Sequence record: HQ630627.1
DNA length: 64,000 bases
Strand: one strand, 5' to 3'
DNA from: Pseudomonas phage PhiPA3
Positions 1,781 through 57,966 of the stretch are shown here, in pieces; position 1 is the stretch's first letter, and every line of letters starts with the position of its first letter. A program made the translations under genes and the position numbers. The notes under the pieces are model-generated. The model did no database searches, was not told the DNA's origin, and saw only the letters and a list, made by a program, of their open reading frames with translations.

Positions 1781-1822
1781 ACGACATAGAGCCCCTCCGT
1801 AATGGAGGGGCCTTATGCCGTT
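1781..1822. terminator. bidirectional extended palindromic element (ACGACATAGA-gcccctcc-gtaat-ggaggggc-CTTATGCCGTT)
   Basis: GC stem-loop between convergent genes, flanked by CATA and TATGCCGT arms. Confidence 0.6.
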
Positions 1823-1830
1823 ATTTTTTT

Positions 1831-2262
1831 TTATGTTTCCGCAAACGTTAATGTAGCTGACGTTGTCGGTAGATATGCCATGGAGCGAGCTGATGGCTGT
1901 AGTGTTACAGTGTTCCCAGTGATCGGTACTTCAATATACTCATCAGGTTCCATTGGTATCCCAATGGTGTCACGCAATACACGAACAACGTCACGGTTCG
2001 TTGCGTATTGTCCACGCTTTCCCGGAATCTTAACCCCACGAAGGTCTTGCTCAATCGGACGACGATTAAAGTTGATAACTTGCGAACCAGTAAAATTCAA
2101 ACTGGTTGAAGTAGCTCGAATCGTTACCCGTGAATTACACTGCCCCTGTAACCAGATTTCAATATTATCCCACGTCACATCACTTAACGTGATGGGCGGG
2201 TTGATCCTGTTAGCTGCATTGAATTCATTGAGCAAAGCTTGACGAACATTCTTAACATGCAT
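1831..2262 (-). CDS. hypothetical protein (ATG at 2262 with GAGGTGG RBS; ORF track starts at 2313)
   Basis: ORF plus RBS; begins 8 nt after the upstream stop. Confidence 0.45.
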   Translation of the reverse strand: MHVKNVRQALLNEFNAANRINPPITLSDVTWDNIEIWLQGQCNSRVTIRATSTSLNFTGSQVINFNRRPIEQDLRGVKIPGKRGQYATNRDVVRVLRDTIGIPMEPDEYIEVPITGNTVTLQPSARSMAYLPTTSATLTFAET

Positions 2263-2270
2263 AGCCCACC

Positions 2271-3146
2271 TCAGTCGTAATGTATCAACAATTGCCCCAC
2301 CACATCCAAACACTTGGTAGAACTAAGCTCTATAACGAGCACCATGCGTTTATCTTTGCGTGGGGTATACCGAGGTAGGGGGATGCCATGATAAACCACC
2401 TTGAAGCGTTGCTGGCCGTTTAAAACGTCATAGCACACATTGTGCGATACGGCTGATTCAGAAGTGGTCCATGGTTGTCCTGTGACTTTCTTCAAGATCG
2501 CTGCAAAGCGTTTGGTATCAGGGAAGAAATCCCCAACCTTAATGTTCTTCAAGTATTCACGATGAGGCGTGAAGTCATACCCGGTTACATAGTACGTACC
2601 AGAGATCTTAGTGCCATCGTTCCCTACTGGGAAACGGTTGGCGGTAGGAAACTCTAGTTGAGTAGAAAATGTACCTAGGTCTTTCTTCAGCGTATTCGAC
2701 AAACGAATTTTGAGAGAACCCACCCAACGTAGTGATTTAGGGTTTGCTTGAATAATGTATTCCTGCCCATATCGGTCCATCTCGAAATGCACAAGGTCAC
2801 TCACGTCGAAGACGATATCGTTCAGTTTTGCAATATCTGCCGCAAACTCTACAGTGGTGTAAGGTAGACGCTTTCCAGCGATGGTTTGTGTCCCAGACTG
2901 CCTAAAGAACGTAGCCAGATCTAAACGATCGTAGGTGTATTCAGTCAGTTCAACTTCCGGTAACATATTACCAGGACTGGTGCTACGATGGACACCAATC
3001 TTGATACGAGTCTTGGTACCGCCTAACGATTCGAACTCTTCCAACGTCGTGCTACCCGGAAACAACTGGGTTAAGCACGCCTCGTTGATCATGTCGATAA
3101 TGGCCGTCCAAGGAGAAGATTTAAGATAGTCCCTGGTGATGTACAT
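2271..3146 (-). CDS. hypothetical protein (291 aa), possibly virion-associated
   Basis: long ORF; start overlaps the upstream stop (TAACACATG), suggesting translational coupling. Confidence 0.5.
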   Translation of the reverse strand: MYITRDYLKSSPWTAIIDMINEACLTQLFPGSTTLEEFESLGGTKTRIKIGVHRSTSPGNMLPEVELTEYTYDRLDLATFFRQSGTQTIAGKRLPYTTVEFAADIAKLNDIVFDVSDLVHFEMDRYGQEYIIQANPKSLRWVGSLKIRLSNTLKKDLGTFSTQLEFPTANRFPVGNDGTKISGTYYVTGYDFTPHREYLKNIKVGDFFPDTKRFAAILKKVTGQPWTTSESAVSHNVCYDVLNGQQRFKVVYHGIPLPRYTPRKDKRMVLVIELSSTKCLDVVGQLLIHYD

Positions 3147-3149
3147 GTG

Positions 3150-5356: not shown

Positions 5357-8059
5357 ATGGCTCAACGTCAAGTTAATGAGGTGGCGTATCCGAAGCTACA
5401 GGCGATCCGCTTGGGATCAACTGCAACGCCGACGAACGCACTCCTCAACCTTCTGCGTAAGGATCCAAACGCATTGGGTACGGAAGCCGCGAAACCTCGG
5501 GTTAACGTAAATCGTTTCACCCTGGACAAGGTTTCGCGCGACACCTCACAAGAGATCATCGATAGCGACTCTATTATGCAGTTGCTCCCTGACCTTGAGT
5601 TGGTGGAGACTGTATATGTAGGTTCGATTATCGACCCGAAGGCATTGTCAGATACTGATTTGACCTTCTCTGTCGATCAGGCTATTTTCGACAGTGAACT
5701 CTCCAAACACCTGCTTGAGCCTGTTGAGAAGTATTTTAAACGAGACTATAAGATTGACGAGCGCTTGGACCTGATCCTACGCGATTGTTTGTTCCGTAAA
5801 GGCGCTTCGATCCTAGCCGTTCTTCCCGAGAACGTACTAGATAATCTTATTAATGGTCGTCGTCAGGTTTCTATGGAGACCTTCGAACAGATCCGTAATC
5901 GCGTAGAGAATACTACTACTGATAACCTCGGGTTTTTGGGGCATCCCACTGATCAAACTATCTCGTTGGAGGGTTACGCTAATAACGCTACCACCAACCG
6001 GATACGCGGTGACAAACATCTTACCGTCACCGATAACTTCAACGTTTTGAAAGTCCCTGGGATGTCCCGCCGTGTACGCGAGATGTCAATCGCGAAGAAA
6101 CTTCGCGGTAACCAGGTTTCTTTGGAAGCTGAGGTACATAACTTCGGCAACGATGAAATCGAGAAGCTGTATCAGAGTCGCTTAGGGGGTACGGAACATA
6201 CACAAGTTGTAACGTCTCCTCGTTACATGGACCGTCCTTCGGTTGGCCATCCGCTGATCCTACCGTTACCAATGGAATCGGTCGTACCGGTGTTTGTTCA
6301 AGGTCGTCCTCATGAACATATTGGTTATTTCCTGTTGGTGGACCAACATGGTTATCCTATTTCGAAAGATTCGACCCGCGACTTCTATGGTGAACTGCAA
6401 GCTGGTTGGAAAGGTGGTAAGAACTCAGATAACAACTCCGAAGTTCTGCGACTGACCCGCGAAGCATTGGGTAACAATACTAAGCGACAAGATTTTGAAA
6501 TTGATGAGATCCAACAAACGTACAACGCTATTATCGTGAACGATCTGAACAACCGTCTGCGTAATGGCATGTACGACCAAGAACTGGAAATTGGGATCAC
6601 TGAAGAAATTCAGCGGATCATGCTCTATCGTTCTTGGAAAGCTAAGAATACTCAACTGGTATTCATTCCAGCAGAACTACTCACCTACATTGCTTTTGAC
6701 TATAATGTCAATGGTATCGGTGAGACGTTGCTGTCTCGGTCAAAAATGATCGCCACTATGCGTTCGACTCTGCTCATGGCCGAGACCATCGGCGGGATGC
6801 GTAACGCGGTAGGTCGTAAACGAGTGAATATCACACTCGATCCAGATGACGTTGATCCGGAACAAACGATCTCAAATATTCAATCCAACATCATGGAATC
6901 TGCACATCGTAGTTTCCCGTTGGCCGCTCCAGACCCTACTCAGGCAATGGACCACCTAATCCGTTCTGGCTTTGATTTTGCCATCAATACCAATGGTGCT
7001 GATTATGCAGAGACCAAAGTTGAATACGATGATTACAACACATCGGTAAACGCAGGTAATCCAGACCTGCAAGACCGTCTGCGTCGTATGCATATTTCGG
7101 GTATGGGTGTACCACCTGAGAAAGTGGATCCGATGTCTTCACCGGACTTCGCAACATCGGTGGTACAAAACGACCTCGTAATGTCCCGTCGTGTACGCGA
7201 TAAACAGAAGACATTCTGTCAACATCTGTCTAAGTTCATCCGTTCGTTCGTTACTCACAGTTCCATCATCCGTGAAGAATTGAACAAGATTGTAACAGAC
7301 AATGCTAAGATGTTGATTTCCCCAGAATTCAAACACATGACCGTACAGGAAGTGGTGGATGAATTCATCCTGTCGATCGAAGTTTCCCTACCGACTCCTG
7401 ACAACACGCAACATGAGCGTCAGTCTGAAGCATTGGAGAACTATGATCGCCTGCTGACTACTGCATTGGAATCGTATATCACTCCGGAACTATTCCCGGA
7501 TGAACTGACTCAGATTCCTGGATTGACAGACCAAGTCATGAATCATGTGAAAGCAATGTTCAAACGCCAGTTCATGGCACAGAACAATATTCTGCCGGAA
7601 CTGAATATCTTGACTGAGATGGACGGTGATAAACCGGCATTTAGTCTGTTGGACTTCGCAGCACTGCAACAAGGTACAATGGCGAAAGCCTTCTTGGCCT
7701 TTGCCAAGCATACACAGGAATCCAAACTCCATCTGGAGAAACTCTATAAGAACGTTATCGAAGGTAACGACGAGAACGGAATTACTCCTGGTGGCGGTGG
7801 TGATTTTGGGGGTGGCAATGACTTCGGTGGTGGAGACGAGTTCTCTAACATCGATGAAGGTGGTGGTGATATGGACCTGGGTGTCGATGGTGGCACTGGG
7901 GACGGCAGCGAGCAATCCGATGATTTCGGTGCTCCTGAATCGGATGTACTTGATGAGGGTACAGAAACCGATGAAGACAAACCACAAACCGATGGACTCG
8001 AAGACCCAATGGCTGAGGCGGAAGCTGAAGAAAACGGGAAAGACGAGGACAAGTTGTAA
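5357..8059 (+). CDS. hypothetical large virion-type protein (900 aa) with Gly-rich acidic C-terminal tail (GGGGDFGGGNDFGGGDEF...)
   Basis: long ORF with a low-complexity acidic tail; a portal or inner-body-like role is speculative. Confidence 0.55.
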   Translation: MAQRQVNEVAYPKLQAIRLGSTATPTNALLNLLRKDPNALGTEAAKPRVNVNRFTLDKVSRDTSQEIIDSDSIMQLLPDLELVETVYVGSIIDPKALSDTDLTFSVDQAIFDSELSKHLLEPVEKYFKRDYKIDERLDLILRDCLFRKGASILAVLPENVLDNLINGRRQVSMETFEQIRNRVENTTTDNLGFLGHPTDQTISLEGYANNATTNRIRGDKHLTVTDNFNVLKVPGMSRRVREMSIAKKLRGNQVSLEAEVHNFGNDEIEKLYQSRLGGTEHTQVVTSPRYMDRPSVGHPLILPLPMESVVPVFVQGRPHEHIGYFLLVDQHGYPISKDSTRDFYGELQAGWKGGKNSDNNSEVLRLTREALGNNTKRQDFEIDEIQQTYNAIIVNDLNNRLRNGMYDQELEIGITEEIQRIMLYRSWKAKNTQLVFIPAELLTYIAFDYNVNGIGETLLSRSKMIATMRSTLLMAETIGGMRNAVGRKRVNITLDPDDVDPEQTISNIQSNIMESAHRSFPLAAPDPTQAMDHLIRSGFDFAINTNGADYAETKVEYDDYNTSVNAGNPDLQDRLRRMHISGMGVPPEKVDPMSSPDFATSVVQNDLVMSRRVRDKQKTFCQHLSKFIRSFVTHSSIIREELNKIVTDNAKMLISPEFKHMTVQEVVDEFILSIEVSLPTPDNTQHERQSEALENYDRLLTTALESYITPELFPDELTQIPGLTDQVMNHVKAMFKRQFMAQNNILPELNILTEMDGDKPAFSLLDFAALQQGTMAKAFLAFAKHTQESKLHLEKLYKNVIEGNDENGITPGGGGDFGGGNDFGGGDEFSNIDEGGGDMDLGVDGGTGDGSEQSDDFGAPESDVLDEGTETDEDKPQTDGLEDPMAEAEAEENGKDEDKL

Positions 8060-8098
8060 CGACATAAAAGCCCCACCTTCGGGTGGGGCTTTATGCTC
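8059..8098. terminator. bidirectional extended palindromic element (AACGACATAAAA-gccccacc-ttcg-ggtggggc-TTTATGCTC)
   Basis: convergent gene ends, GC stem, UUCG loop. Confidence 0.65.
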
Positions 8099-8100
8099 TC

Positions 8101-9405
8101 TTAACCTTCTACACCCATCACACGGAAAAATGCAGTCTCATCTCTAAAGGGATGAGCCGGATAACGACCACCATTAATGATTCCTTGCTGTGTCCAGTTC
8201 ATGTGTTCGGCATCGTAATCGTGACGAACATTACGGGTGGCACAGTACACGTACATGGGTTCTTTATCAGGTACCAAATACGTTTCATGGGGTTCATGAA
8301 TTGTGTGATAATCAAGCATCCGACCGTACGCGCCAACCATCGGTAGACGGTTGTATGTCTCGTCGATAAACCGACCCGGTAGATTCAGATATTCGACAGG
8401 CTCATATCCATGGAAGAAAGTCGGGCTATCCACAATAACAAAGAACGTCTGCGATAAAGTAAGGTATGCTCGAATAACGGCATCATTTTTGAGTTCGTTA
8501 ACTACAAACTCCGTAGGATCATTAGCATTGATGGTTAACCCTAAACTAGATAGATCCATACAGCGAGCCGATTCAATATAACGGTCTAGGAACATCATTT
8601 TACCGAAGCTGATTCGCCATGTCCGTTCTGCTACACGGGTATACACGTTAGACAAAACGTTTAAATAACCGCCTGTTACCAACAATACTGTTTTATTAGT
8701 CAGATCGACACCAGCTGGCATTGTCAGATATGCACCATCCCACAGTGGAGCAGTTTCACCTTGTGAGGTGATCATTTCATCAGTCACGGGGATGTATGTC
8801 AGCTTACCAATGGTCTCAAACGAATAGATTCCAATTTGGTTATCGTTCGAACGGCGCAGTGTAGTATTACCGTCAATGACTCGAACTCCAGCATCAGTCC
8901 AATCTGTCAGATGGAACATGCCGTTAACCGTCACCATGCTGTAATCACGTATCTTTTGTGGAGCATGCTTGGGATGGGTCAGCAGTAGATCTTGCTTCTC
9001 GAATTTAGAAATCTGTTGATCAACATGCCCATTGGTGGCGACCGGTTGAACATTATAGCCGCAGTGCCATGCTTGAGCATATTTCACTAATCGAACATCC
9101 TCGTTCGGTAGAGTAGCATCAAATGGCAGAGTTCGATTACCAAGGCTGGTCAACCATTGCTGAACAGTGACTGTCGTATCAACCTCGTTTAACCAGTTGA
9201 TGACATTATCCCAATGCAGTGCCTTTTGTACCGCACCACCAGTACCAGGATACTCGATATAAAGGTAGACATCACCGTATTTAGCGGAGAGAGTAGTCAC
9301 TAGCTCGTTGGCAAGATTCGCCTCAATCCAGCGTCCGGCGCGGCGATCAAGCCGATACCTTGCACGTACTAAAGTGTACATTTTGCCTCCGGATGAAAAG
9401 ATCAA
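8101..9405 (-). CDS. hypothetical protein (434 aa), lone reverse-strand gene between plus-strand modules
   Basis: long ORF with no motif recognised. Confidence 0.55.
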   Translation of the reverse strand: MIFSSGGKMYTLVRARYRLDRRAGRWIEANLANELVTTLSAKYGDVYLYIEYPGTGGAVQKALHWDNVINWLNEVDTTVTVQQWLTSLGNRTLPFDATLPNEDVRLVKYAQAWHCGYNVQPVATNGHVDQQISKFEKQDLLLTHPKHAPQKIRDYSMVTVNGMFHLTDWTDAGVRVIDGNTTLRRSNDNQIGIYSFETIGKLTYIPVTDEMITSQGETAPLWDGAYLTMPAGVDLTNKTVLLVTGGYLNVLSNVYTRVAERTWRISFGKMMFLDRYIESARCMDLSSLGLTINANDPTEFVVNELKNDAVIRAYLTLSQTFFVIVDSPTFFHGYEPVEYLNLPGRFIDETYNRLPMVGAYGRMLDYHTIHEPHETYLVPDKEPMYVYCATRNVRHDYDAEHMNWTQQGIINGGRYPAHPFRDETAFFRVMGVEG

Positions 9406-20081: not shown

Positions 20082-20489
20082 ATGACGTTAGAAGATACAC
20101 TGTCGAACATGGGTGCTGAACCCATTTCCGCCGCCGAGAACTTCAGGCAGATGATGGCTTTCCTGAACGGAAGTCTTATTCGTGCTGGTCAAGAGAAAGT
20201 TACAGAAGCAACACCTAGTGATCAGGTGTTGCAGGCAATTTACTCTATCCCAGATCAGGCACAGCGTGAAGCTATCCTGTTCCGGGAGTACAAAGAGATG
20301 CCAAAAAAAGATTCGTACAAATCGGTAGTGATTGGCGCAACCACCATTATCGCTGCGATTGTTATCGCTGCATTGGTTGGAATTGTAAAAGCGGAAGGAC
20401 CGATGGATGCTAATACAGCAGATTTGTTTAAATTGATTAGCCAAGGCTTGATCGAGTTACTCAAAGCCATCATTGGTTCCGGACAGTAG
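20082..20489 (+). CDS. membrane protein (single TM at residues ~83-105); holin candidate
   Basis: hydrophobic SVVIGATTIIAAIVIAALVGIV segment; sits between the spanins and the endolysin. Confidence 0.35.
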   Translation: MTLEDTLSNMGAEPISAAENFRQMMAFLNGSLIRAGQEKVTEATPSDQVLQAIYSIPDQAQREAILFREYKEMPKKDSYKSVVIGATTIIAAIVIAALVGIVKAEGPMDANTADLFKLISQGLIELLKAIIGSGQ

Positions 20490-20496
20490 AAAATAT

Positions 20497-20527
20497 AAAA
20501 CCTCCCTCGGTTCTCGGGGGAGGTTTT
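20497..20527 (+). terminator. hairpin AAAACCTCCC-loop-GGGAGGTTTT followed by TTTTATAATG
   Basis: palindrome followed by a T-tract, seen directly. Confidence 0.5.
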
Positions 20528-20582
20528 ATAATGCTATGTAGGCTGAGTAACTTTTTTCTTAAGCCCCATTAGAGGTTTTAGC

Positions 20583-21931: not shown

Positions 21932-22630
21932 ATGGCTAAGGCTACAAAAATCTCCGAATACGAAATTCTAACCGAGCTTACCGGTGACGAATACGTTGAG
22001 GTAATTGCACCCACCCCTGAAGGGGAACAACCTTTTAAAAACTACCGTGTATCGACGGCTAAGTTTGGTATGGGTAAATCCGCCTATGAACTGGCGGTTG
22101 AAGGTGGTTACACCGGCACTCAGGAAGAATGGCTGGCATCACTGCAAGGTGAATCAGCTTATCAAATCGCGGTTAAGTATGGCTATACCGGTTCCGAAGC
22201 CGAATGGAATGCCGTGTTTGATACCATCTACATTCGCGATGCATCTTCGGCCGGTAAGATCCTCGTAGTTGGTACGGCCGGTACACCGGAGTGGCAAGCT
22301 TTGACTAAGACCCGCGTTGGTCTGGATCAAGTGGATAATACTGCTGACGCCGATAAACCGATTTCCAACGCCGTAGCGGTAGCCCTGGCCAGTAAAGCGG
22401 ATCTGGGCGAAGACGGTAAGATTAATCCAGAACAACTCCCAGCTTCGACTGCCCCGGTTGCAGCCACTGTGGAAGAGGTTCTGGAAGGAGTAGATAATAC
22501 CAAGTTTATTACAGCTGAAACAGTATTTGCTCTGCTGGCTGAAATTGGTATTACAAAAGACGGCAGCGGTAATTGGACCATTGATAGTTCCAAGCTGAAC
22601 CCGCAACCTGAATTCCCAGTCGTGCCGTAA
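21932..22630 (+). CDS. fibre-associated protein with two SAYE(L/I)AVxxGYTGTexEW repeats; N-terminus paralogous to the 22758 protein
   Basis: repeat motif and N-terminal similarity (TGDEYVEVI...NYRVS vs TGEEFLEVI...NYRLM). Confidence 0.55.
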   Translation: MAKATKISEYEILTELTGDEYVEVIAPTPEGEQPFKNYRVSTAKFGMGKSAYELAVEGGYTGTQEEWLASLQGESAYQIAVKYGYTGSEAEWNAVFDTIYIRDASSAGKILVVGTAGTPEWQALTKTRVGLDQVDNTADADKPISNAVAVALASKADLGEDGKINPEQLPASTAPVAATVEEVLEGVDNTKFITAETVFALLAEIGITKDGSGNWTIDSSKLNPQPEFPVVP

Positions 22631-22633
22631 AAA

Positions 22634-22670
22634 TATACTGGAGTCCCTTAGGGGACTCCTTTATGTCGAC
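22634..22670 (+). terminator. hairpin ggagtccc-ttag-gggactcc followed by TTTATGTCGAC
   Basis: seen directly. Confidence 0.55.
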
Positions 22671-22757
22671 TTTAAAATGCCTTACTGTATGAGTCTTATT
22701 TCTCTTAAGACGTGTAAGAAGTAGTTGAAAGACTCTCTTCACCCAAAGGAAGACACA

Positions 22758-28812: not shown

Positions 28813-28869
28813 CGTCTTATTTATCAGAGAAATAATATATTGGGGCCCAGTTAAAATTCAGGAAGCGAT

Positions 28870-30431: not shown

Positions 30432-31619
30432 ATGGGTATTCTTGTTGCTAATGACGGTGATGTGGTAGTAGCCTCTATTGCGGCTCGTGATGAGATCGCG
30501 ATTAAGCGCCCACAAATGCTCGTCCTGGTAGAAGATGCAACTGCTGACCCTGTCTTCGGTGGTGGGTCCGTCCAGTATATTTGGGATCATGTTGCGTTGG
30601 GCTGGTCTCCAATCTGGTCTTCTCGTAAACCTAACCTTACGTTTGTAACCGAAGAGAAAGTTATTACGGGTGGTCAAGTTACTGCTGACCATGTCGTTAA
30701 AGATAATGTCGTGTTGTCGGCTATCATTCTGGATACCGACAATACAATCCTAAGTGATGCTGTTCCAACTGTAAGTGGTACTGCGATCAATTTAGGGACT
30801 AACACGTACGACGGTAAGAGACTACATTACACGTATGCGTATGGTAGCCTCACTCAACTCATCGAAAATATTTGGGAAACCAAAGCTGACCTGACTTACG
30901 TCAATACGAACTTTGCTAGTCAGCAATATGTTCAGGATGCAATAGGTGCAGGGAATTTCCTAACCGCAGCCGACTTGGATGGTTATGCCACTGAAACCTG
31001 GGTAACCAATCAGGAATATCAGACCAGTACTGACGTTGATAGTAAAATCACCGCTGCGCTCTCTGGGTATGCGACAGTAGCGTTTGTTAATGGTAAAGGT
31101 TATCAAACGGCTTCTGATGTTACAACATACGTAACGAGTCTTGGTTATCAAACGAGTAATCAAGTTGATTCTAAGATCTCCGCAGCCCTTAACGGTTATG
31201 CAACACAGAGCTATGTAACTTCACGTGGTTACATTACCGATGCCGCTAATGACGGTAAGAAATACATCCGCACTAACCAAGGTTGGGCGGAATTGACGGT
31301 TAGTTTCGATACATATTCTCTGTTGTCGAGTACTTCTGCTTCTGGGGATTATGTAGTTAACGCTACCAACCAACAGTCGGTTGCTTTAACAGCGACGGTT
31401 ACACGTAATGTAAGCTTTACCAATGGACCGGCTAACCGTACGATCACAACAGCATTAATCATGGTGGGTGCTAAGGCACCCAATGTCACCGGTTCCAATG
31501 TTAAATGGCAGGCCAATACTGCACTGACCGATGCAGATATGGGCGCAACCAAAACAGTTATCGTGGCGTTCTGGGATGGCATCGACACTTGGATCCTGAC
31601 CAAAGGTCCTTATTACTAA
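30432..31619 (+). CDS. fibre protein with tandem GYATxxYV ~30-aa repeats and a C-terminal tip domain paralogous to the C-terminus of the 25493 protein
   Basis: C-terminal ~110 aa alignable (SFDTYSLLSS...TKTVIVAFWDGIDTWILTKGPYY vs TFDTYNLKSS...NKTVMAALWDGETTWIIARGAAY). Confidence 0.55.
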   Translation: MGILVANDGDVVVASIAARDEIAIKRPQMLVLVEDATADPVFGGGSVQYIWDHVALGWSPIWSSRKPNLTFVTEEKVITGGQVTADHVVKDNVVLSAIILDTDNTILSDAVPTVSGTAINLGTNTYDGKRLHYTYAYGSLTQLIENIWETKADLTYVNTNFASQQYVQDAIGAGNFLTAADLDGYATETWVTNQEYQTSTDVDSKITAALSGYATVAFVNGKGYQTASDVTTYVTSLGYQTSNQVDSKISAALNGYATQSYVTSRGYITDAANDGKKYIRTNQGWAELTVSFDTYSLLSSTSASGDYVVNATNQQSVALTATVTRNVSFTNGPANRTITTALIMVGAKAPNVTGSNVKWQANTALTDADMGATKTVIVAFWDGIDTWILTKGPYY

Positions 31620-31621
31620 AA

Positions 31622-31666
31622 GACGGCATATCGCCCCACCCGAAAAGGTGGGGCTTTATGTTGTTA
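31622..31666. terminator. bidirectional extended palindromic element (GACGGCATAT-cgccccacc-cgaaaa-ggtggggc-TTTATGTTGTT)
   Basis: sits at the strand switch between the fibre module (+) and the DNA-metabolism module (-). Confidence 0.65.
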
Positions 31667-32377
31667 TGCACGGAACATACTGAAGTACATAGCGTCGATA
31701 AATTCGAAGTCCATGTGAATCAGCTTCTCCATGCGAAATCGCCAGAGCGTATACTTCTTAGCTTCGACATTAATGTTTGATACGTCGTGCTCAAAGATCT
31801 TAGGTCCAATGAAATTGAAACAGTTCATTTTGACCTTACCCAGCTCTTCTGCATGATACTTTACCCACGGAATAAAATCGTAAGTAATGTACATAGCAAA
31901 TAAGGCGTCCATAAAGAACGGGGACAGTTCTTCCATGGAGTGTTTAACGATCTCGACGGTGGTAGATTGCCCATAGAGCTCTTTGATGATCTCTACGAGT
32001 TGTTCTTTATATTCACCATCTAAGTCATAGGGATGGATATTCACACATACACACACTTCATCCAACGGATTCCCCATGTTGTCCATGCGGTTAACGTTGT
32101 CTTCAGCTAGTACGCGCATGAGGAAAGGCATGATACCCGTCATTACTGAAGCATTAAGGGTATCTGCTGTATTTTGTCCGCCCCGCTCGGCATAGGCTTC
32201 TGCAAACTGTTCGTTAGTAATACGCCCTTTGGTTAACACATCCCAGAAATCATTCTCTCGTGTCCAGTAGTCTCTGGTCTTAACCAAATCCACAGCGGCC
32301 TCTGGACAGATGCGTTGAATGGTTCCTAGACGTGTATCCAAAAGCGCATCCAAATCAATCAAGATACGCTTAAGCAT
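31664..32377 (-). CDS. hypothetical protein (237 aa)
   Basis: ORF. Confidence 0.5.
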   Translation of the reverse strand: MLKRILIDLDALLDTRLGTIQRICPEAAVDLVKTRDYWTRENDFWDVLTKGRITNEQFAEAYAERGGQNTADTLNASVMTGIMPFLMRVLAEDNVNRMDNMGNPLDEVCVCVNIHPYDLDGEYKEQLVEIIKELYGQSTTVEIVKHSMEELSPFFMDALFAMYITYDFIPWVKYHAEELGKVKMNCFNFIGPKIFEHDVSNINVEAKKYTLWRFRMEKLIHMDFEFIDAMYFSMFRA

Positions 32378-36160: not shown

Positions 36161-37123
36161 ATGAAACTCAATGTACTGACCAAGTATTCTCCAGGTATCG
36201 AAAACCACACCATCGAAGATGCGGTGTTTGATCCTTCACTCAACAAGTTCTTCACTGAAGGTGATCCGAACTCTGCTGAACAGACTGCTGAAACAGAAGC
36301 ACTGCCGATTGACCAGACTCCTACGGACAAGCTTTTTGATGCATTGCAAACCGTGTCAACTGAAGCTGGATTTATCGGTAATGTCTCTAACTGGTTTGCT
36401 CGTAAAGCAGGTAACCTGAACATGAACGTTCGGGAAGGTTTCCGTTATCTGACCAGTTGGAACTACGATCCCATGCAGAAACTTAATGTTCTGCAAATGC
36501 GTAACTTTGTTGAAACTTTGGACTACATGACCATTGAAACGCTGCGTGTATCTCAACCCGCTGGTTTTCGTGGTGAACTCCTACCGTATACAACTGGGCT
36601 GCAAAAGCGTGCTCAGATCATGGCTGAGGTAGTAGATAAGGTTATTAAACCTGCCACCGCTCGTTTTGGTCATTATCTGTCCACTCCGGAAGAACGTGCA
36701 GAACGTCGTCATTTCCAATATGGTGCTGAACTGGGCCATGACCTGGATGCACTTATCAAAGCTGACGCTGCTCATTTCTCCAGCAATCGTGTAGCCACTG
36801 CCAAGTTTGGTGAACTATTTAGTTCAATGAATGATTTCATTGAATGTGAACGCAACATGGTAGATGTCAATACCATCCTCAATGGCGGTACTACTTCCAC
36901 CGTGAAGAATGCCGTAGAAGCCCTGAGCCAAACTGCAACTGCTCTGGTGGATCGCATTGCCAAGGATAAAGACATCAAGACTTCCAGCGAATTGGCTAAG
37001 ATGATTGCTGAAGAGATCGCTGAAGTAGCCCGTTGGGTTGAATGGTACTCGGTACAGATGACACGCATCATCGAAACCAACAACGTACTGTATTCGATCG
37101 AACAAGAGCTGCGCGCTATGTAA
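36161..37123 (+). CDS. hypothetical protein (320 aa)
   Basis: ORF with AGGA RBS; divergent from the UvsX-like gene. Confidence 0.5.
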   Translation: MKLNVLTKYSPGIENHTIEDAVFDPSLNKFFTEGDPNSAEQTAETEALPIDQTPTDKLFDALQTVSTEAGFIGNVSNWFARKAGNLNMNVREGFRYLTSWNYDPMQKLNVLQMRNFVETLDYMTIETLRVSQPAGFRGELLPYTTGLQKRAQIMAEVVDKVIKPATARFGHYLSTPEERAERRHFQYGAELGHDLDALIKADAAHFSSNRVATAKFGELFSSMNDFIECERNMVDVNTILNGGTTSTVKNAVEALSQTATALVDRIAKDKDIKTSSELAKMIAEEIAEVARWVEWYSVQMTRIIETNNVLYSIEQELRAM

Positions 37124-37167
37124 GACAACATATTGCCCTCTCCCGAAGGAGAGGGCTTATGCCGTCA
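37124..37167. terminator. bidirectional extended palindromic element (GACAACATATT-gccctctcc-cgaa-ggagagggc-TTATGCCGTC)
   Basis: between convergent genes; overlaps both stop codons. Confidence 0.65.
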
Positions 37168-37575
37168 CACCTGTTCCCGACGTTCTCTCATGCAGAACTG
37201 CATCAGCTGTTTGAGGTCTTCTATAAACACACATTCGTCCGTGTACAGAAGCCAGCACGGGGTCTTCCGCGCAATGCGTTTATAGAACTTCTCGGAGGTG
37301 AGATCGTTTTTGTCGATCGGAAGAATGCCCTTCCACAGATAAGGCCCAAACAGGGTCGGAAGTCGAAGCGCACTCTCGTCACGAACCAAGCGCATCGTCG
37401 AATTAAGTCTTGCAATCCGAGAACACTCATGGTCACGACATTGCACTAAAGCAGCATGCAATGACGCCATCACACACAGCCGCTTGAGATCATCATCCAC
37501 ACGATTCCAAAAGAATAGCCATAATCCTTCGGCAACTTTGCGGACGGGTCTCATGATTCTGTTTGTAATGCTCAT
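37165..37575 (-). CDS. hypothetical protein (136 aa)
   Basis: ORF. Confidence 0.45.
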   Translation of the reverse strand: MSITNRIMRPVRKVAEGLWLFFWNRVDDDLKRLCVMASLHAALVQCRDHECSRIARLNSTMRLVRDESALRLPTLFGPYLWKGILPIDKNDLTSEKFYKRIARKTPCWLLYTDECVFIEDLKQLMQFCMRERREQV

Positions 37576-45721: not shown

Positions 45722-46900
45722 ATGACCACCATAGCCGCATGGGACGAAGTTTGCAGTGACTGGGATAAGATCACCAAGATCCAATCCTCGCTCGAACGCT
45801 TTGCGGATGTGCTGGCTGGACGTGACGAAGCTACTGAGGAGATGGCGCAAGTCATCTCCATTGGTCTGGAGTCGATCGACCCTAACTTCGATATCAAAGA
45901 AGGTAGTAAGATCACCCTCCGAGCTATTAAAGAAGGGATCGTGATGGCAGCTAAGGCTGCCCGCGATCTTATTCGTTATCTCTGGGAACTCCTGAACTCA
46001 TTCTACGTCAAATTCACTGGTAGTATCCGTCGAGTTCGTCGTACACAAGAAGGCATTAGTCGTCGACTGGGTAAGCTCGGTTCTAAGACCACTTACCAGA
46101 AGATGTCTGTGTCGGGTATCCAGCGTTTGTCCATTGACGGTAACTTTGTTGGTACCGAACTGAGCAACCTGCAAGATATCCACCAACTAACCAACTACAT
46201 TCTTAATCAGTATCCCAAGAGCGTCGTTAAGATTGCTCGTGACGCTAGTCGCCAGTTCCTGAACATTCTGGATCAAGGTGGTGAGCGTCAGGTCGTGATG
46301 GAAAATGCAGTTGATGCATTTGCTGATATTCTCCAGCGGGACTTCATACCCCCGCAAGGTTTCCGTCCTGTGCAACCACGGGAACTGGGTAGCCTTGAGA
46401 AAGGTGTTAATCGCAGTGAGATCCTGCCAGGTAACGTAGCCTTCCTCTATACTCCGCCAGATGTAATTCGCCAACAGCTGAAGTCTGGTAAGGGTAACCT
46501 GGAGAATATCATCAAGAGTTCGTTCACTATGCAATTCTCTGAATTGCAGCTCAATGTGGCTGACCGTTCTGAACGTGAGATCGAGGTGCCCTCAGTCCGT
46601 ACTTTGAGTGAAATCACCGAAAAGATTTCCAGCATCCTGTCTCTGGCCGAGCGGGCTGAAGCGGGTCGAAAGGACTTCGCCACGGTCAAGGTTGTAGTGG
46701 ACGACGCTATTCGCCAAATTGCTGAGCGTAGTAGTGAAGAGAACAATTCCGGTAATGTGCTATTACATATCACGGGTGAGATCTCTAAGAAACTAGCTGA
46801 GCCCATGGGTTTCTATACCCACTGGTTGGCAGTAACGCTGAACGTGTGGCTGAACTTTGTAAGTCAGTGCATTAAGCATTACGAAGACGAAGGCGTATAA
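45722..46900 (+). CDS. hypothetical protein, tandem paralog of the 43970 gene
   Basis: AAGGA RBS; the paralogy is seen in the translations. Confidence 0.5.
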   Translation: MTTIAAWDEVCSDWDKITKIQSSLERFADVLAGRDEATEEMAQVISIGLESIDPNFDIKEGSKITLRAIKEGIVMAAKAARDLIRYLWELLNSFYVKFTGSIRRVRRTQEGISRRLGKLGSKTTYQKMSVSGIQRLSIDGNFVGTELSNLQDIHQLTNYILNQYPKSVVKIARDASRQFLNILDQGGERQVVMENAVDAFADILQRDFIPPQGFRPVQPRELGSLEKGVNRSEILPGNVAFLYTPPDVIRQQLKSGKGNLENIIKSSFTMQFSELQLNVADRSEREIEVPSVRTLSEITEKISSILSLAERAEAGRKDFATVKVVVDDAIRQIAERSSEENNSGNVLLHITGEISKKLAEPMGFYTHWLAVTLNVWLNFVSQCIKHYEDEGV

Positions 46901-46942
46901 CGGCATAATAGCCCCTCCTTCGGGAGGGGCGTTATGTTATCA
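46899..46942. terminator. bidirectional extended palindromic element (AACGGCATAATA-gcccctcc-ttcg-ggaggggc-GTTATGTTATC)
   Basis: convergent gene ends; overlaps both stop codons. Confidence 0.65.
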
Positions 46943-47206
46943 TTGACTTACTGTCATCTTCGAGTTATCAGTGAGTGTATGGCCACAACTTGCGGCATCT
47001 CCGACTTTACAGATGGGGATTCCTTGTACGCGCAGTTTAGTAGAACCCTGTACCATACGTGCATTGTTGTGTGACCCGTTACCATGTCCTCGAATCTGAT
47101 CACCAAGCTGGGTTGCTACAATACCGCCAATGCGTAATTTAAGTGCACCTGGTCCCAACACCGTACCACCTGCTACAGCGATACCGATTCTTCCGACAGC
47201 TGGCAT
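46940..47206 (-). CDS. PAAR-repeat spike-tip protein (88 aa, gp5.4-like)
   Basis: LGDQIRGHG and KVGDAASCGH PAAR-type motifs; AGGGGA RBS; start placed at the internal ATG of ORF 46940..47335. Confidence 0.65.
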   Translation of the reverse strand: MPAVGRIGIAVAGGTVLGPGALKLRIGGIVATQLGDQIRGHGNGSHNNARMVQGSTKLRVQGIPICKVGDAASCGHTLTDNSKMTVSQ

Positions 47207-50826: not shown

Positions 50827-51112
50827 ATTCGATAGTCTCGCAGGTTTGGTATGTTTCCTCGTATTGCTTTTCTTCGTAGGGAAGATTATCTTGTCGGATA
50901 TTTTCTCAACTCTAGAGAAGCAACAACATGATGAACTGCATAAACAACATGCGGAGCAGTTACGTCTTGATGCCGAACGCTATCAAGAACGATTAAACGA
51001 AATTGGTCGGGGTCGAATAGACATTGGGTATGTTTTCGATTACGAAGATTGGTTACTAGATAAACAAGACCATCAGCGTAATGGAACCCATTATGAAGTC
51101 ATCAACATTTAG
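50819..51112 (+). CDS. small membrane protein (about 97 aa, N-terminal TM; start 50807 or 50819)
   Basis: hydrophobic LAGLVCFLVLLFFVGKIIL; overlaps the upstream gene end. Confidence 0.4.
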   Translation: MDKFDSLAGLVCFLVLLFFVGKIILSDIFSTLEKQQHDELHKQHAEQLRLDAERYQERLNEIGRGRIDIGYVFDYEDWLLDKQDHQRNGTHYEVINI

Positions 51113-51140
51113 CCTCCTTCGGGAGGCTCTATGTCGTAAA
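51104..51140 (+). terminator. hairpin agcctcc-ttcg-ggaggct plus CTATGTCGT
   Basis: UUCG stem-loop plus TATG. Confidence 0.5.
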
Positions 51141-51157
51141 ACCTAAAAGGTGTTATC

Positions 51158-52234: not shown

Positions 52235-52244
52235 CAGCACCAAC

Positions 52245-52287
52245 TGACGGCATAACGCCCCTCCTTCGGGAGGGGCTTATGTCTACT
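52245..52287. terminator. extended palindromic element (GACGGCATAAC-gcccctcc-ttcg-ggaggggc-TTATGTCTAC) plus T8
   Basis: the left arm is the exact reverse complement of the TTATGCCGTC consensus. Confidence 0.65.
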
Positions 52288-52304
52288 AAATTTTTTTTCA
52301 CATC

Positions 52305-53039: not shown

Positions 53040-53498
53040 ATGAGCAGCATCATTCGATACAACATCAAGACTGCGAATAAACCGATTCTTGATGTTCTAC
53101 ATCTGTATCTGGGTATTCGTGAAAGAGTCGATGAAGTCAACAAGACTGTAATCGACGGAACTACTGTAGAACTGAACCTAGTCCTGGTAGTAAACCATCG
53201 CTATATCCGAGACTATGATGAGATTGCCGATACATTGGCAAATCTATCAAAAGGAACTCCGTATGAACTCTACATACTGAGTAATCGATTCCTGTTCAGT
53301 TGGATGACTGATAACTTCAATGACCTGGGTGGTTTACAAGAACGTTATCAGACTGTTTTGGAAAGTGATGTCTATGGTACCGTATACGACACCACCAGAG
53401 CACGATACACGAAAACACCGGAATGGCGATCCCCACATTTAGGATGGGCTGAGACCTTTAATCGGGGTTTCAATAGTTTGGTGAGTGTATTTGGATAA
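53040..53498 (+). CDS. hypothetical protein (152 aa) in an AT-rich, atypical-codon segment
   Basis: ORF with AAGG RBS. Confidence 0.45.
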   Translation: MSSIIRYNIKTANKPILDVLHLYLGIRERVDEVNKTVIDGTTVELNLVLVVNHRYIRDYDEIADTLANLSKGTPYELYILSNRFLFSWMTDNFNDLGGLQERYQTVLESDVYGTVYDTTRARYTKTPEWRSPHLGWAETFNRGFNSLVSVFG

Positions 53499-53542
53499 GT
53501 CGGCATAAGCCCCACCCGAAAAGGTGGGGCAATATGTCGTTA
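53499..53542. terminator. bidirectional extended palindromic element (GTCGGCATAA-gccccacc-cgaaaa-ggtggggc-AATATGTCGTT)
   Basis: convergent gene ends. Confidence 0.65.
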
Positions 53543-54058
53543 GAAACCAAGAAGTGCTTCTTCTTCTTTGCGTGCCTTTTCACGAATAGCTTCCATGCGT
53601 TCAGTGAATTCTTCCGAAGTCTCAGCGATCACACCGATTTCGTCTTCACCTTCAGCATGGGTAAATTCGCCCAGATCTTCTTGATCGATTTGTGGTTCCA
53701 TACCACGACCATCACCTTCAGTGGCGACGAATGGGTTCTTGTTCTTTGCATTTTGAATAAATGCAGCCATACCAGCCAATAGGTCTGCCGAAGTACGGTT
53801 GGCTTCCTGATCGACACTGATACGCTTGTTAGCGATCGCTGTACGATCCATGGAGTCCATGACCTTAAGCATGGTATCAACAGATTCTTTATCTGTAGGG
53901 ATGGTTCCTACTGGATTGGAGAACGCCAGCTGATGCAGAATGCGTTGTTTGGTATTCTGAGTATACTGGATCTGTTCTTCATAGGTCATGTCCGAGTATT
54001 GCCGTTCAGGCTCTACTGGTACAAATACGTGGGGCTTCTCAGCGGGATACTGTTCCAT
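53540..54058 (-). CDS. hypothetical acidic protein (ATG at 54058 with GAGGTG RBS; ORF track starts at 54133)
   Basis: RBS-supported start. Confidence 0.45.
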   Translation of the reverse strand: MEQYPAEKPHVFVPVEPERQYSDMTYEEQIQYTQNTKQRILHQLAFSNPVGTIPTDKESVDTMLKVMDSMDRTAIANKRISVDQEANRTSADLLAGMAAFIQNAKNKNPFVATEGDGRGMEPQIDQEDLGEFTHAEGEDEIGVIAETSEEFTERMEAIREKARKEEEALLGF

Positions 54059-54132
54059 GGGACACCTCTCGTTGGTAAAAATACCCAACGGAATAACTAT
54101 ATGCCATAAAATGCGGATTGGAGTTCTATACA

Positions 54133-54675
54133 ATGATTACAAGGCTACGCCAATGGTGGCGCGGACTATCGGCAACACCCAAACAAAAGTATACCCGCTG
54201 GCTGGAAGAGATCAATGAAATCCCTACGTTATCAGAGGAACTCCCCGACGCATTAGTTGAGCTCTGGCGGCGAATCGACGTTGATGCAATCAGTCGTCAA
54301 AACCCCCGAGTGATGATGTCAGCCTTCTTCGAGCTGCGTCATGCCAATATCCAGGAATTGATCCAAACCCTACATCAGGTCAATGACCACGTTGCATCGG
54401 GATCAGCTTCTAAGATTGAATACCTATCGAAGAACGATTTCATTAAGCATCGCGAAATGTCCTTGGATAATTATTTCGTGGATGCTGAAAATTACGCTGT
54501 CGATATTAAAGAACATCTATCCCAACTTAAAGACTTGCTGATTACCCATGGTCAGATTCTGGAAATTAAGGAGGAGAGTTTTTATCGTCGCATGTTAGGT
54601 CGCTTATACTTCGATGTACTAGCACTGACAGAAACACTCGTTAAACATATGCAAGAGGGCACCGATATGAAGTAA
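54133..54675 (+). CDS. hypothetical protein (180 aa; ATG at 54133 with GGAG RBS)
   Basis: ORF. Confidence 0.45.
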   Translation: MITRLRQWWRGLSATPKQKYTRWLEEINEIPTLSEELPDALVELWRRIDVDAISRQNPRVMMSAFFELRHANIQELIQTLHQVNDHVASGSASKIEYLSKNDFIKHREMSLDNYFVDAENYAVDIKEHLSQLKDLLITHGQILEIKEESFYRRMLGRLYFDVLALTETLVKHMQEGTDMK

Positions 54676-55865: not shown

Positions 55866-55871
55866 TTGAAG

Positions 55872-55910
55872 GACATGGGGCGTCTCCGAAAGGGGACGCC
55901 TTATGCCTCC
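55872..55910 (+). terminator. hairpin ggcgtctcc-gaaa-ggggacgcc (GNRA loop) plus TTATGCCTCC
   Basis: seen directly. Confidence 0.55.
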
Positions 55911-55952
55911 AATTGTATGACCTATTATTTTTTTGTCTGAACAGGTGTAACC

Positions 55953-57125
55953 ATGCCTACTCTCGCATCAGCTTCCTTTACAGGTATACCAACAGATCCC
56001 GTCAAAACGGTGGATGCCTATAAAGACGTAGTGGACACAACCCTACAGAACACGCTTCAACCTAAAATCTCTGCCTTTGAAATTGGCATGGATGACCTGC
56101 TCGCCAAAACTACCAAAGTTGTAAAAGGTATTGGTAGTAGTTTGTTGGGTAGTGGAGGTATTGACCTCAACCAAGCTAAAGATCGAATCGTTGATGCCTT
56201 AAAAGGCTCCCGTTCGAGCATTGTGTATTTGGGAGAAGCCCTAGAACGTTCGATTAACGAAGAACTCACTGGAACCGATACAGGTACAGGTTACGTCCGC
56301 AAGGCTACGGATATGCTCGATGGCGTAAAAGCCATCATGCAGAACAAAGAGTACTACTTCGAAAATGGAAACTTCCAAGGTGTCAACGGCATCATGGGAT
56401 TCTTGGGAGATCTGACCAATAACTCCATTCTTCGTGCAGTTGACTTGGGTGCCAATGCTGCCATTCTGAAAGGAGTGTTATCCCAGGTATCAGCCTGGGG
56501 GATTCCTGATCTGGTTGATACCACATTCGGGGCATCGTGGAATGACCAGTACAAGCGCTATGATTACCAGTATGACGATAATTTCCGATTCACTGTAGCC
56601 AAGCGTACATCTAAAGATCTCTCGCCGGGCACTGATCTGCTCACCATTGATCGCATCATGGTACATGGTGGAGATATGGCCCTGGTTGCTGAGAACCCAG
56701 ACTTCCCTATCCAACTGCTGAGTTCATACGTGTTCCCAGCTGGTACTGTACCCGGTGGTCCATTCCCAGTAATGATCCCAGATCCAGCTAATCCAAGCGG
56801 CCCTATGATCCCTGACCCGGAAGGTACACAGACCGTACCCAATTACGCGAATGAACTCGCATTGTTGTTGGAGATCATGGATCGCTTGAAACCAGACTGG
56901 TTCTATTACTTGCGTCGAGTATTTATTGATCGGAATGGCGATGGCGATTATTACCGTGATGATAAGGTTTGGAATCTTCGGGTTATTGCTCAAGCTTCTC
57001 AAGATGCAACAACATTACTGTTAACCAGTGATGAGCACCGTGATGCTGTTCTGACTGCTCCGTTTTATAAGGTGGAGAGTGCCACAGCTGAACTCAAAGC
57101 GATGTATCCCTACTTTGCTGAATGA
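55953..57125 (+). CDS. hypothetical protein (390 aa)
   Basis: ORF. Confidence 0.5.
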   Translation: MPTLASASFTGIPTDPVKTVDAYKDVVDTTLQNTLQPKISAFEIGMDDLLAKTTKVVKGIGSSLLGSGGIDLNQAKDRIVDALKGSRSSIVYLGEALERSINEELTGTDTGTGYVRKATDMLDGVKAIMQNKEYYFENGNFQGVNGIMGFLGDLTNNSILRAVDLGANAAILKGVLSQVSAWGIPDLVDTTFGASWNDQYKRYDYQYDDNFRFTVAKRTSKDLSPGTDLLTIDRIMVHGGDMALVAENPDFPIQLLSSYVFPAGTVPGGPFPVMIPDPANPSGPMIPDPEGTQTVPNYANELALLLEIMDRLKPDWFYYLRRVFIDRNGDGDYYRDDKVWNLRVIAQASQDATTLLLTSDEHRDAVLTAPFYKVESATAELKAMYPYFAE

Positions 57126-57162
57126 CAACATAAACGCCTCCCTTCGGGGAGGCTTTATATTT
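57123..57162 (+). terminator. hairpin (GACAACATAAA-cgcctccc-ttcg-ggggaggc-TTTATATTT)
   Basis: seen directly. Confidence 0.55.
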
Positions 57163-57219
57163 GAATGCATCTAAACCCTATATCACTAACATGAATCCAA
57201 TAACCAAGAGGAAAATACA

Positions 57220-57480
57220 ATGACTGAACGTTTGAAATCGGTATGGGTTGCTTGCTCCCTGTTGCGGACACGGTGGCCCACTATCCAAGATCTTCCGGTC
57301 GGTGAAGACTATCATGTCATCGTTAAAAATGACTCACTGATGGTCTTCAAAGGTCAGACTCCTGTCGGTTCTATGCATAGAACTGATAGCGAGCCACGTA
57401 TCTTCGAGGGGCATACTCTTGAAGAATTTACCAAGGTCGTTCTGGACTTGGAATACGATACCCATGAGGGTCATCGTTAA
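57220..57480 (+). CDS. hypothetical protein (86 aa)
   Basis: AGAGGAAAA RBS. Confidence 0.45.
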   Translation: MTERLKSVWVACSLLRTRWPTIQDLPVGEDYHVIVKNDSLMVFKGQTPVGSMHRTDSEPRIFEGHTLEEFTKVVLDLEYDTHEGHR

Positions 57481-57483
57481 TGC

Positions 57484-57526
57484 GATATAAAACCCTCCCC
57501 GCCAAGGGAGGGTTTTATGCCGTTCA
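57484..57526 (+). terminator. hairpin AAAACCCTCCC-cgccaa-GGGAGGGTTTT plus ATGCCGTTC
   Basis: seen directly. Confidence 0.55.
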
Positions 57527-57609
57527 GAGTGTTAACGCAAACTGAATGGAGTGGTAACCGCGGTCCCGCTCTCGCAAAAGTACCGTAGACAAAACTAAAA
57601 GGGCCACCC

Positions 57610-57921
57610 ATGAAATGGTCTTTTATCAACGAGCCATTCCGGCGCCTTTTACGGGTGCGGGACGTGGTTTGTAACCGAGATTATTATCTTACTACTGAAG
57701 GTTGGACGCCGGATGAAGTGGATAATACTCTCGCATATAATACGGTAGCAGAGTATAATAAAGCTCTGGCCCGTGCTAAAATGGATGTATTAAACGGTTT
57801 GTTCAGCAACAACGTGTTGTTGGACGGTCTTGATGTAACCCAGGAAGTCATCGACGGTAACGTTAAGCTTGTCAGGTGGCCTCCAAGTTGTGAACTACAT
57901 CACGTGCAGCTAGCTGCCTAA
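57610..57921 (+). CDS. hypothetical protein (103 aa)
   Basis: AAAAGGG RBS. Confidence 0.45.
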   Translation: MKWSFINEPFRRLLRVRDVVCNRDYYLTTEGWTPDEVDNTLAYNTVAEYNKALARAKMDVLNGLFSNNVLLDGLDVTQEVIDGNVKLVRWPPSCELHHVQLAA

Positions 57922-57966
57922 GAACATAAAGCCCTCTCCTTCGGGAGAGGGCGATTATGCTTTCTT
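57921..57966. terminator. bidirectional extended palindromic element (AGAACATAAA-gccctctcc-ttcg-ggagagggc-GATTATGCTTTC) plus T10
   Basis: convergent gene ends. Confidence 0.65.

Follow-up and report, generated by a model that had tools for sequence, protein, structure and literature searches.

Palindromic gene-end elements of a phiKZ-like jumbo phage are probable hairpin-dependent transcription terminators with a TATGYYGT tail

What reads the extended GC-rich palindromes that lie between the genes of Pseudomonas phage PhiPA3? We analyzed a stretch of 64,000 nucleotides (nt) of this genome (record HQ630627.1; hereafter the window), in which hairpins of the form GCCCCNCC-loop-GGNGGGGC are flanked by ACRRCATAA to the left and TTATGYYGT to the right. 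We consider it very probable that these elements terminate transcription in a hairpin-dependent manner and are specific to the family of phiKZ-like jumbo phages (nucleus-forming, Chimalliviridae-type). Judged by gene order and similarity, the window itself is that of a phiKZ-like jumbo phage: its genes are collinear with phiKZ gp124-gp178 and PS119XW gp146-gp212, megablast and blastn give 67-73% DNA identity to Pseudomonas phages PA1C, PS119XW and phiKZ only, identity to Pawinskivirus is ~70% in DNA, and a homolog of an RNA polymerase (RNAP) beta-like subunit is encoded at 62528-63715 (-).

A terminator motif has been published for two relatives. According to the text of the phiKZ report, 61 intrinsic terminators defined by ONT-cappable-seq 3' ends have in common 5'-BCCYCCCCHWWDGGGRRGGBYTTATKYYGT-3', in which a TTAT region comes after a stem-loop, with six bidirectional terminator regions between convergent genes and 9% of terminators in antisense orientation (Putzeys 2024, PMC10914365). 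For phage 201phi2-1, the text describes two motifs: A, which “strongly resembles” that of phiKZ, and B, by which the hairpin is lengthened. It counts 15 terminators as bidirectional, and eight that were cloned function in P. chlororaphis without infection (PMC11512511). At the level of sequence, the right half of the window element is the published phiKZ motif, and the window combines the C-rich/G-rich stem-loop, the YTTATKYYGT tail 3' of the stem, placement at gene ends and a phiKZ-like genome. The published consensus, whose fixed length cannot track variable loops, matches four window sites at no more than 3 mismatches (0 expected). A covariance model with 25 phiKZ hits as its sole source (R2) retrieves twelve copies in the window, ten of them at E<=0.01 and two with weaker scores; it also retrieves four in Goslar, a phage of E. 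coli, and one in a distantly related IMG/VR jumbo contig. Applied to 50 kb sampled from the out-group Bacillus phage AR9, a weak test at 27% GC, R2 finds 0 copies; the tails there are plain and T-rich. Rfam contains no family for the element.

The preliminary description of this DNA, made from the sequence alone, gave a total of 18 hairpins, but its list holds 19 positions, all of which are indeed GC-rich hairpins. The commonest stems are GCCCCNCC or GCCCTCTCC with a complementary purine arm, the loops are TTCG, CGAA and CGAAAA, and the alignment consensus reads TGACGACATAA-n-[hairpin]-TTTATGTCGTCA. TATGYYGT is matched at 7/8 or better in 21 of the 38 flanks of 14 nt (binomial P=1.7e-33, the null being random 14-nt windows, 0.9% of which reach this level). 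The same mechanical scan yielded 17 other hairpins, mostly intragenic, and not one of their 34 flanks reaches 7/8. Seen from the other side, 13 of the 17 TATGYYGT sites in the window adjoin a hairpin. About 12 to 14 of the 19 hairpins belong to the family, R1, a covariance model, finding 12 copies in the window. The octamer TATGCCGT or its complement had been credited to at least eight elements; we count six occurrences in the window (1.9 expected), all six beside hairpins. Family copies are without exception intergenic, 0-15 nt from stop codons, the outer TTA/TAA of the arms frequently being the stop codon of the flanking gene, and the seven copies assigned to the small-gene region are present within 51.1-57.97 kb. 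Predicted RNA folds reach -17 to -30 kcal/mol (z -5 to -7.7) and do pair the outer arms as had been proposed, although the stem-to-TATG spacers of 1-3 nt are often unequal between left and right and often not complementary. The earlier inference that something recognises the sequence of the element is reasonable.

The arrangement of the arms follows the orientation of the neighboring genes. Drawing on the window together with 74 kb of PS119XW and 100 kb of phiKZ, we collected 48 distinct elements, scored both of their sides against TATGYYGT and classed the junctions from annotation, three doubtful minus-strand genes at convergent junctions of the window being confirmed by homology. At convergent junctions (n=25), the left arm reaches at least 7/8 in 23 elements, the right arm in 21 and both in 19; at co-directional junctions (n=23), the corresponding numbers are 6, 10 and 1, with one full arm in 15 elements. 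The difference in two-armed copies, 19/25 versus 1/23, is highly significant (Fisher P=2.6e-7), and all seven convergent junctions of the window carry a two-armed copy (1776, 8055, 31619, 37121, 46896, 53495, 57917). Since the arms track convergent junctions, each looks like the 3' tail of one strand's terminator, with the hairpin shared. The ~45-nt palindrome, previously taken for one recognised unit, is then better described as a bidirectional terminator in which each strand needs the same tail, that is, as two half-sites without an obligatory unit: one-armed copies are common, both arms occur together in only 1/23 co-directional elements, the spacers are unequal, and the base following TATG is complementary between arms in only 2/26 copies. 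Stop-codon content was considered as a cause of the arms and rejected, as the outer TAA/TTA often is a stop codon but CATAA/TTATG is left unexplained. At the co-directional gp138/139 junction, phiKZ (L003:18909-18957) and PS119XW (L002:19068-19115) share a one-armed copy with its full tail antisense; the orthologous window junction (17835-17881) has no hairpin.

Conservation of the stem points to the RNA. MAFFT alignments put the stems out of register and gave a poor RNAalifold consensus; a covariance model was instead seeded with five copies of identical geometry, and the PS119XW elements and part of those of phiKZ were analyzed through the model's alignments. Five orthologous junctions carry a copy in the window, PS119XW and phiKZ, with CATAA/TTATG constant and compensatory changes in the stem, as illustrated by the gp129/130 stems GCCCCACC, GCCCGGCC and GCCCTCCC. 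An 86-row alignment, fitted to the model and holding each copy in both orientations, has 99% of its cells paired and double changes at all nine pairs; every shuffled or slid control scores far lower. Where a co-directional junction has a TTCG/CGAA loop, UUCG lies on the sense strand in 9/9 cases, and the three wobbles seen in stems are all G.U on the sense strand. Because loops and wobbles both follow the sense strand, the signal acts at the RNA level. A blastn search with the consensus returns only phiKZ-like jumbo phages (66 records). A repeat search on phiKZ returned AT-rich palindromes only. The tail lies on the sense strand again in Goslar, whose host is E. coli, and also occurs in the IMG/VR jumbo contig, where the gp153 homolog is only 28% identical. 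This conservation across hosts suggests that the reader is not the host but phage-encoded machinery, most simply the phage RNAPs.

The elements of the window are listed below (coordinates, strand, description).

50..69, +: armless hairpin GCCCCACC-TTCG-GGTGGGGC with tail TTCTTTTCGTC, comparable to an ordinary terminator; at the edge of the family or beyond it

1776..1826, both strands: two-armed TGACGACATAGA-GCCCCTCC-GTAAT-GGAGGGGC-CTTATGCCGTTA, convergent between 1050..1766 (+) and the gp126 homolog 1831..~2256 (-); R2 E=4e-6; orthologous copies in PS119XW and phiKZ

8055..8104, both strands: two-armed TAACGACATAAAA-GCCCCACC-TTCG-GGTGGGGC-TTTATGCTCT, convergent between 5357..8059 (+), whose stop codon is the left-arm TAA, and 8101..9405 (-)

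20487..20541, +: degenerate TATAAAA-CCTCCCTCG-GTTCT-CGGGGGAGG-TTTTATAA, co-directional (+,+), U.G wobble on the + strand; R2 E=0.22; orthologs at L002:21759 (PS119XW) and L003:21607 (phiKZ)

22626..22673, +: one-armed, + tail only, GGAGTCCC-TTAG-GGGACTCC-TTTATGTCGA, between co-directional + genes; tail 7/8, left flank 6/8

28781..28820, +: hairpin with variant + tail TTTTATTTCGTC (TATTTCGT, 7/8), 3' of the gp146 homolog; the variant tail also occurs at the orthologous phiKZ site (L003:28925)

31619..31669, both strands: two-armed GACGGCATATC-GCCCCACC-CGAAAA-GGTGGGGC-TTTATGTTGTTA, convergent between 30420..31619 (+) and 31664..32377 (-)

37121..37170, both strands: two-armed TAAGACAACATATT-GCCCTCTCC-CGAA-GGAGAGGGC-TTATGCCGTCA, convergent between the gp153 homolog (+) and the gp154 homolog (-); R2 E=9e-8; location of a megablast match to Phabio

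46896..46945, both strands: two-armed TAACGGCATAATA-GCCCCTCC-TTCG-GGAGGGGC-GTTATGTTATCA, convergent between 45722..46900 (+) and the gp163.1 homolog 46940.. (-)

51096..51141, +: one-armed, full + tail CTATGTCGT, degenerate left arm, TTCG loop, co-directional (+,+); R2 E=0.06

52242..52290, both strands: full - strand arm TATGCCGT, + tail TATGTCTA (6/8), TTCG on the + strand, co-directional (+,+)

53495..53544, both strands: two-armed TCGGCATAA-GCCCCACC-CGAAAA-GGTGGGGC-AATATGTCGTTA, convergent between 53040..53498 (+) and 53540..54133 (-), a PS119XW gp202 homolog

55866..55914, +: weak member GGACATGG-GGCGTCTCC-GAAA-GGGGACGCC-TTATGCCTCC, co-directional (+,+), U.G wobble on the + strand, 6/8 on both sides; R1 E=0.41

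57121..57168, both strands: full - strand arm TATGTTGT, U-rich + tail TTTATATTTG, TTCG on the + strand, co-directional (+,+)

57478..57527, +: one-armed, full + tail TTTTATGCCGTT, degenerate left arm GCGATATAAAA, co-directional (+,+)

57917..57967, both strands: two-armed AAGAACATAAA-GCCCTCTCC-TTCG-GGAGAGGGC-GATTATGCTTTC, convergent between 57610..57921 (+) and the head-protease homolog 57973..58812 (-); E=3e-8

The hairpins at 50, 30385, 41327 and 43206 are without arms, the one at 20497 is degenerate, and those at 22640 and 28781 have one tail each. Four of the five homopolymer runs of at least 7 nt in the window are runs of T7-T10 found, on the + strand, 10-30 nt past an element: a T9 run at 1824-1832 with element 1776..1826, a T8 run at 52291-52298 downstream of 52242..52290, a run at 55928-55934, and a T10 run at 57965-57974 with 57917..57967. 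The T runs after the gp125/126 and gp207/208 junctions are kept in PS119XW and phiKZ, and both are followed in the window by ...TTTCCGCA. Six nt past the T8 run stands TATATTAC (52305-52312), which recurs at 50582-50589; both copies are on the + strand, intergenic and upstream of + strand small genes, their count is not above chance, and the sequence is similar to the core of the early (virion RNAP) promoters of phiKZ, which is AT-rich.

Within two-armed copies, one position behaves unexpectedly for a palindrome. The base after TATG (+4) differs between the arms in 24 of 26 two-armed copies (window 1776, 8055, 31619, 37121, 46896, 52242, 53495 and 57917, and copies in L002-L005), being identical in 2 where 12 are expected (permutation P<0.0002). 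Read on one strand, copies are GCATA...TATGT or ACATA...TATGC, and never GCATA...TATGC. The polarity flips between orthologs at gp125/126, gp153/154 and gp207/208 while the difference is kept, and it shows no link to loop orientation or sense strand. An independent IMG/VR set displays the same trend in weaker form (27 different versus 11 same, Fisher P=0.006), and the effect recurs, less strongly, at positions +9 and -2. At no position does complementarity between the arms exceed chance, which argues against selection for arm-arm pairing. The +4 mismatch may serve to keep the DNA from becoming a perfect palindrome, or it may be a deliberate break in the helix.

The tail itself is no ordinary terminator tail. 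Anchored on TATG, 60 half-sites read [G-rich stem]-C-N-(T/A)-TATG-Y-Y-G-T-(T/C)-(A/T), with TATG invariant in 58 of them. TATG is often preceded by AA, GA or CT, and also by TT; given the frequent AA and GA, the tail is not a U-tract, in agreement with the earlier claim that flank conservation goes beyond a stem plus U-tract. A canonical U-tract (at least about 4-5 U after the stem) was not found, and a simple terminator scan of 1-20 kb returned only the copy at 50. TATG is also the necessary core of phiKZ late promoters, where its G is +1 and downstream sequence decides activity (PMC4666361), and the beta-like subunit GP123 of the phiKZ non-virion RNAP (nvRNAP) binds TATG on the non-template strand (PMC12809450). 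The text of the two terminator papers makes no mention of a TATG shared by terminator tail and late promoter (PMC10914365, PMC11512511). Directly past the 20497 hairpin (10 nt), TGCTATGTAG at 20532-20541 (+) exactly reproduces the core of P119L, a late promoter of phiKZ, which has no hairpin in phiKZ. Past element 22626..22673, a separate block TTACTGTATGAGTCTTATTT at 22682-22701 (+), upstream of the gp145 homolog, is one that PS119XW and phiKZ conserve as well; in all three phages, a conserved TTACTGTATGAGTCTT (TGTATGAGTCTT) block lies there 23 nt beyond the tail. Such promoter-like sites continue TATG-(T/A)AG, the tails TATG-YYGT. As far as sequence can tell, the overlap suggests a polymerase-specific pause or release signal. 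Multisubunit RNAPs follow a general Y(-1)G(+1) pause rule. In the tail, UUAU may provide a weak upstream hybrid, and the U|G step 5 nt past the stem and the Y|G step at 8 nt resemble this rule, so that pausing or release would fit better than a promoter role.

Taken together, these features can be accommodated in one scheme. The functional unit would be strand-specific, consisting of an RNA hairpin with a C-rich 5' half, a G-rich 3' half and often a UUCG loop, a spacer of 1-3 nt, and a UAUG-YY-G-U tail. Between convergent genes, a single hairpin would serve both strands, each with its own tail, giving ACRRCATAA-hairpin-TTATGYYGT on one strand, and the stop codons of the flanking genes would often fall in or beside the outermost TAA/TTA. 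In place of a U-tract, the tail would make the phage multisubunit RNAPs pause or release in a sequence-specific way, by means of the weak UUAU hybrid segment and the Y|G pause steps, and its TATG would be the tetranucleotide that nvRNAP GP123 binds on the non-template strand. A bolder extension, conceivable but rather doubtful, is that the elongating phage RNAP re-binds non-template TATG in its late-promoter beta-lobe pocket and pauses or releases at UAUG-YY|G-U, so that promoter core and tail share one module and the +4 mismatch acts as a helix breaker that keeps the tails readable or the DNA from forming a perfect palindrome. Termination as such draws on family membership, stem covariation, the sense-strand loop bias, the link of two arms to convergent genes and conservation from Pseudomonas phages to Goslar, all observed here, and on published 3' ends at the motif in phiKZ and 201phi2-1 together with termination in vivo by cloned 201phi2-1 copies, as given in the text of those reports (PMC10914365, PMC11512511).

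Several points weigh against it. For the phage of the window, termination would follow from motif homology. The cloned 201phi2-1 terminators work with the host RNAP, according to the text of that study, and reading of the tail by a phage RNAP in particular is thus not required for termination (PMC11512511). At co-directional junctions, a full arm is about equally frequent on the antisense (7/23) and the sense side (9/23); a model of pure sense tails covers the antisense arms only by invoking antisense transcripts, whose termination is possible. The junction counts include orthologs from three related phages and are not fully independent, and the +4 anti-correlation is not predicted by a bidirectional terminator.

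Among the recognition modes proposed in the preliminary description, a phage RNAP termination signal agrees with the data in the text of the phiKZ and 201phi2-1 reports (PMC10914365, PMC11512511), whereas promoter initiation and DNA binding are disfavored by the separate late-promoter-like TATG beyond the tail near the gp145 homolog, the sense-strand UUCG loops and the covarying stems. The elements might nevertheless combine termination with restart, the tail TATG being a working late promoter with G as +1 that starts the next transcript, or an antisense RNA at convergent junctions, as one transcript is stopped. TATG is, after all, necessary in phiKZ late promoters and bound by the nvRNAP (PMC4666361, PMC12809450), it is nearly invariant in the tails, and the P119L-like TGCTATGTAG lies 10 nt past the hairpin at 20497. 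Yet TATG is insufficient, activity being decided by the downstream sequence (PMC4666361), in which promoter-like sites (TAG or AAG) and tails (YYGT) diverge; the gp145 homolog has its own conserved TGTATGAGTCTT block 23 nt past the tail in three phages, P119L does without a hairpin, and the best-conserved tails sit at convergent junctions, pointing into the end of the opposing gene. We regard restart as improbable. Rather than, or besides, stopping RNAP, the hairpin and flanks could mark RNA 3' ends, bound by a phage RNA-binding protein or nuclease for processing, protection or mRNA export from the phage nucleus. Sequence conservation beyond the stem and across hosts and the sense-oriented UUCG loops would suit such a mark, and sequenced 3' ends alone cannot separate termination from processing. 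This is quite improbable, however, as cloned 201phi2-1 copies terminate in uninfected P. chlororaphis according to that study's text (PMC11512511), and a tail located 3' of the likely release site would be missing from the mature RNA.

Two further explanations place the function in the DNA. The two-fold symmetry of full copies and their dispersal could reflect a palindrome that is bound by a dimeric protein or extruded as a cruciform, in genome organisation, replication or packaging. This seems highly improbable in view of the common one-armed copies and the dependence of the second arm on convergent transcription, of unequal left and right spacers, variable stems with compensatory changes, loops and G.U wobbles that follow the sense strand, and arms that are anti-complementary at +4. 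That the elements are a mobile palindromic repeat spreading through the genome, akin to repetitive extragenic palindromes (REP) or miniature inverted-repeat transposable elements (MITE), is hardly credible: copies are many and similar, and the window-specific three-gene insert (28870-31619) ends with one at 31633, but they lie at the ends of orthologous genes even between phages of only ~70% DNA identity, where their stems have diverged, show no target duplications, and are always placed exactly between stop codons.

Read as terminators, the elements show where transcription units of this phiKZ-like phage end and aid in orienting genes, as for the open reading frame (ORF) 1831-2256, which is assigned to the minus strand. 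At this junction, the longest ORF locally is 1802-2242 (+), which starts within the hairpin; the real gene is the overlapping ORF 1831-2313 (-), with 35% identity to phiKZ gp126 (E=1e-29). A simple model suffices to scan nucleus-forming phages for the elements. A tail other than a U-tract that is kept as far as Goslar frames the questions of how the non-canonical jumbo-phage RNAPs terminate and whether one pocket reads TATG, and the two-arm rule and the anti-complementary +4 are concrete predictions for mutagenesis.

Elsewhere in the window, three extra genes (134, 345 and 399 aa) at 28870-31619 (+) separate the homologs of gp146 and gp147, which are adjacent in PS119XW and phiKZ, the insert being absent from both; it carries the hairpins 28781, 30385 and 31633. 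A Pfam search gave no match for the three inserted genes or for the right-end ORFs. In the window, the homolog of PS119XW gp212 contains a group I intron at 63716-63997 (-) (Rfam RF00028, 59.9 bits, E=1e-12). PS119XW gp212 is an RNAP beta-like protein of 1453 aa; its residues 1076-1453 match window 62528-63715 (-) at 81% identity, and its gene is uninterrupted at the position of the intron. An SbcC-like protein is encoded at 48069-50561.

How do the elements compare with known systems? With the phiKZ motif they share stem polarity and sequence (CCYCCCC...GGGRRGG), the YTTATKYYGT tail, placement after genes and the bidirectional cases at convergent junctions. The published motif, as given in the text, comprises hairpin and 3' tail only, to which the window adds the mirror-image 5' arm; this arm, its restriction to convergent junctions and the overlap of TATG with late promoters are not discussed in the text of the phiKZ terminator paper (PMC10914365). 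In 201phi2-1, motif A is phiKZ-like, and A+B, with an elongated hairpin, stronger termination and 15 bidirectional cases, corresponds to the two-armed copies; that motif B is the left arm would fit, its logos being given in figures only. Its authors explain elongation as resistance to antitermination, whereas two arms follow convergent transcription in the window (text of PMC11512511). The late promoter core of phiKZ has the same TATG, which the beta-like subunit of the nvRNAP binds on the non-template strand, but lacks an upstream hairpin (P119L) and continues with purines (TAG/AG) where the tails continue YYGT. Bacterial bidirectional intrinsic terminators (A-tract, hairpin, U-tract) likewise use one hairpin for convergent transcripts, with a 5' arm that is the complement of the 3' tail; in the window, the tail is instead a fixed UAUGYYGU with invariant A and G, often preceded by AA or GA, and without a U-run. 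T7 RNAP, a single-subunit enzyme, responds to a class II pause and termination signal that is free of a hairpin and different in sequence. The likeness is one of analogy only, in that here too a short conserved sequence is read by a phage polymerase during elongation and a generic U-tract is dispensed with. Collectively, the element is of an already described kind, the window copies being a new set of instances of the phiKZ-type terminator motif, to which this analysis adds the two-arm rule, the range of phages that conserve the element, a testable mechanism in the TATG shared with late promoters, and the anti-complementarity of the arms at +4.

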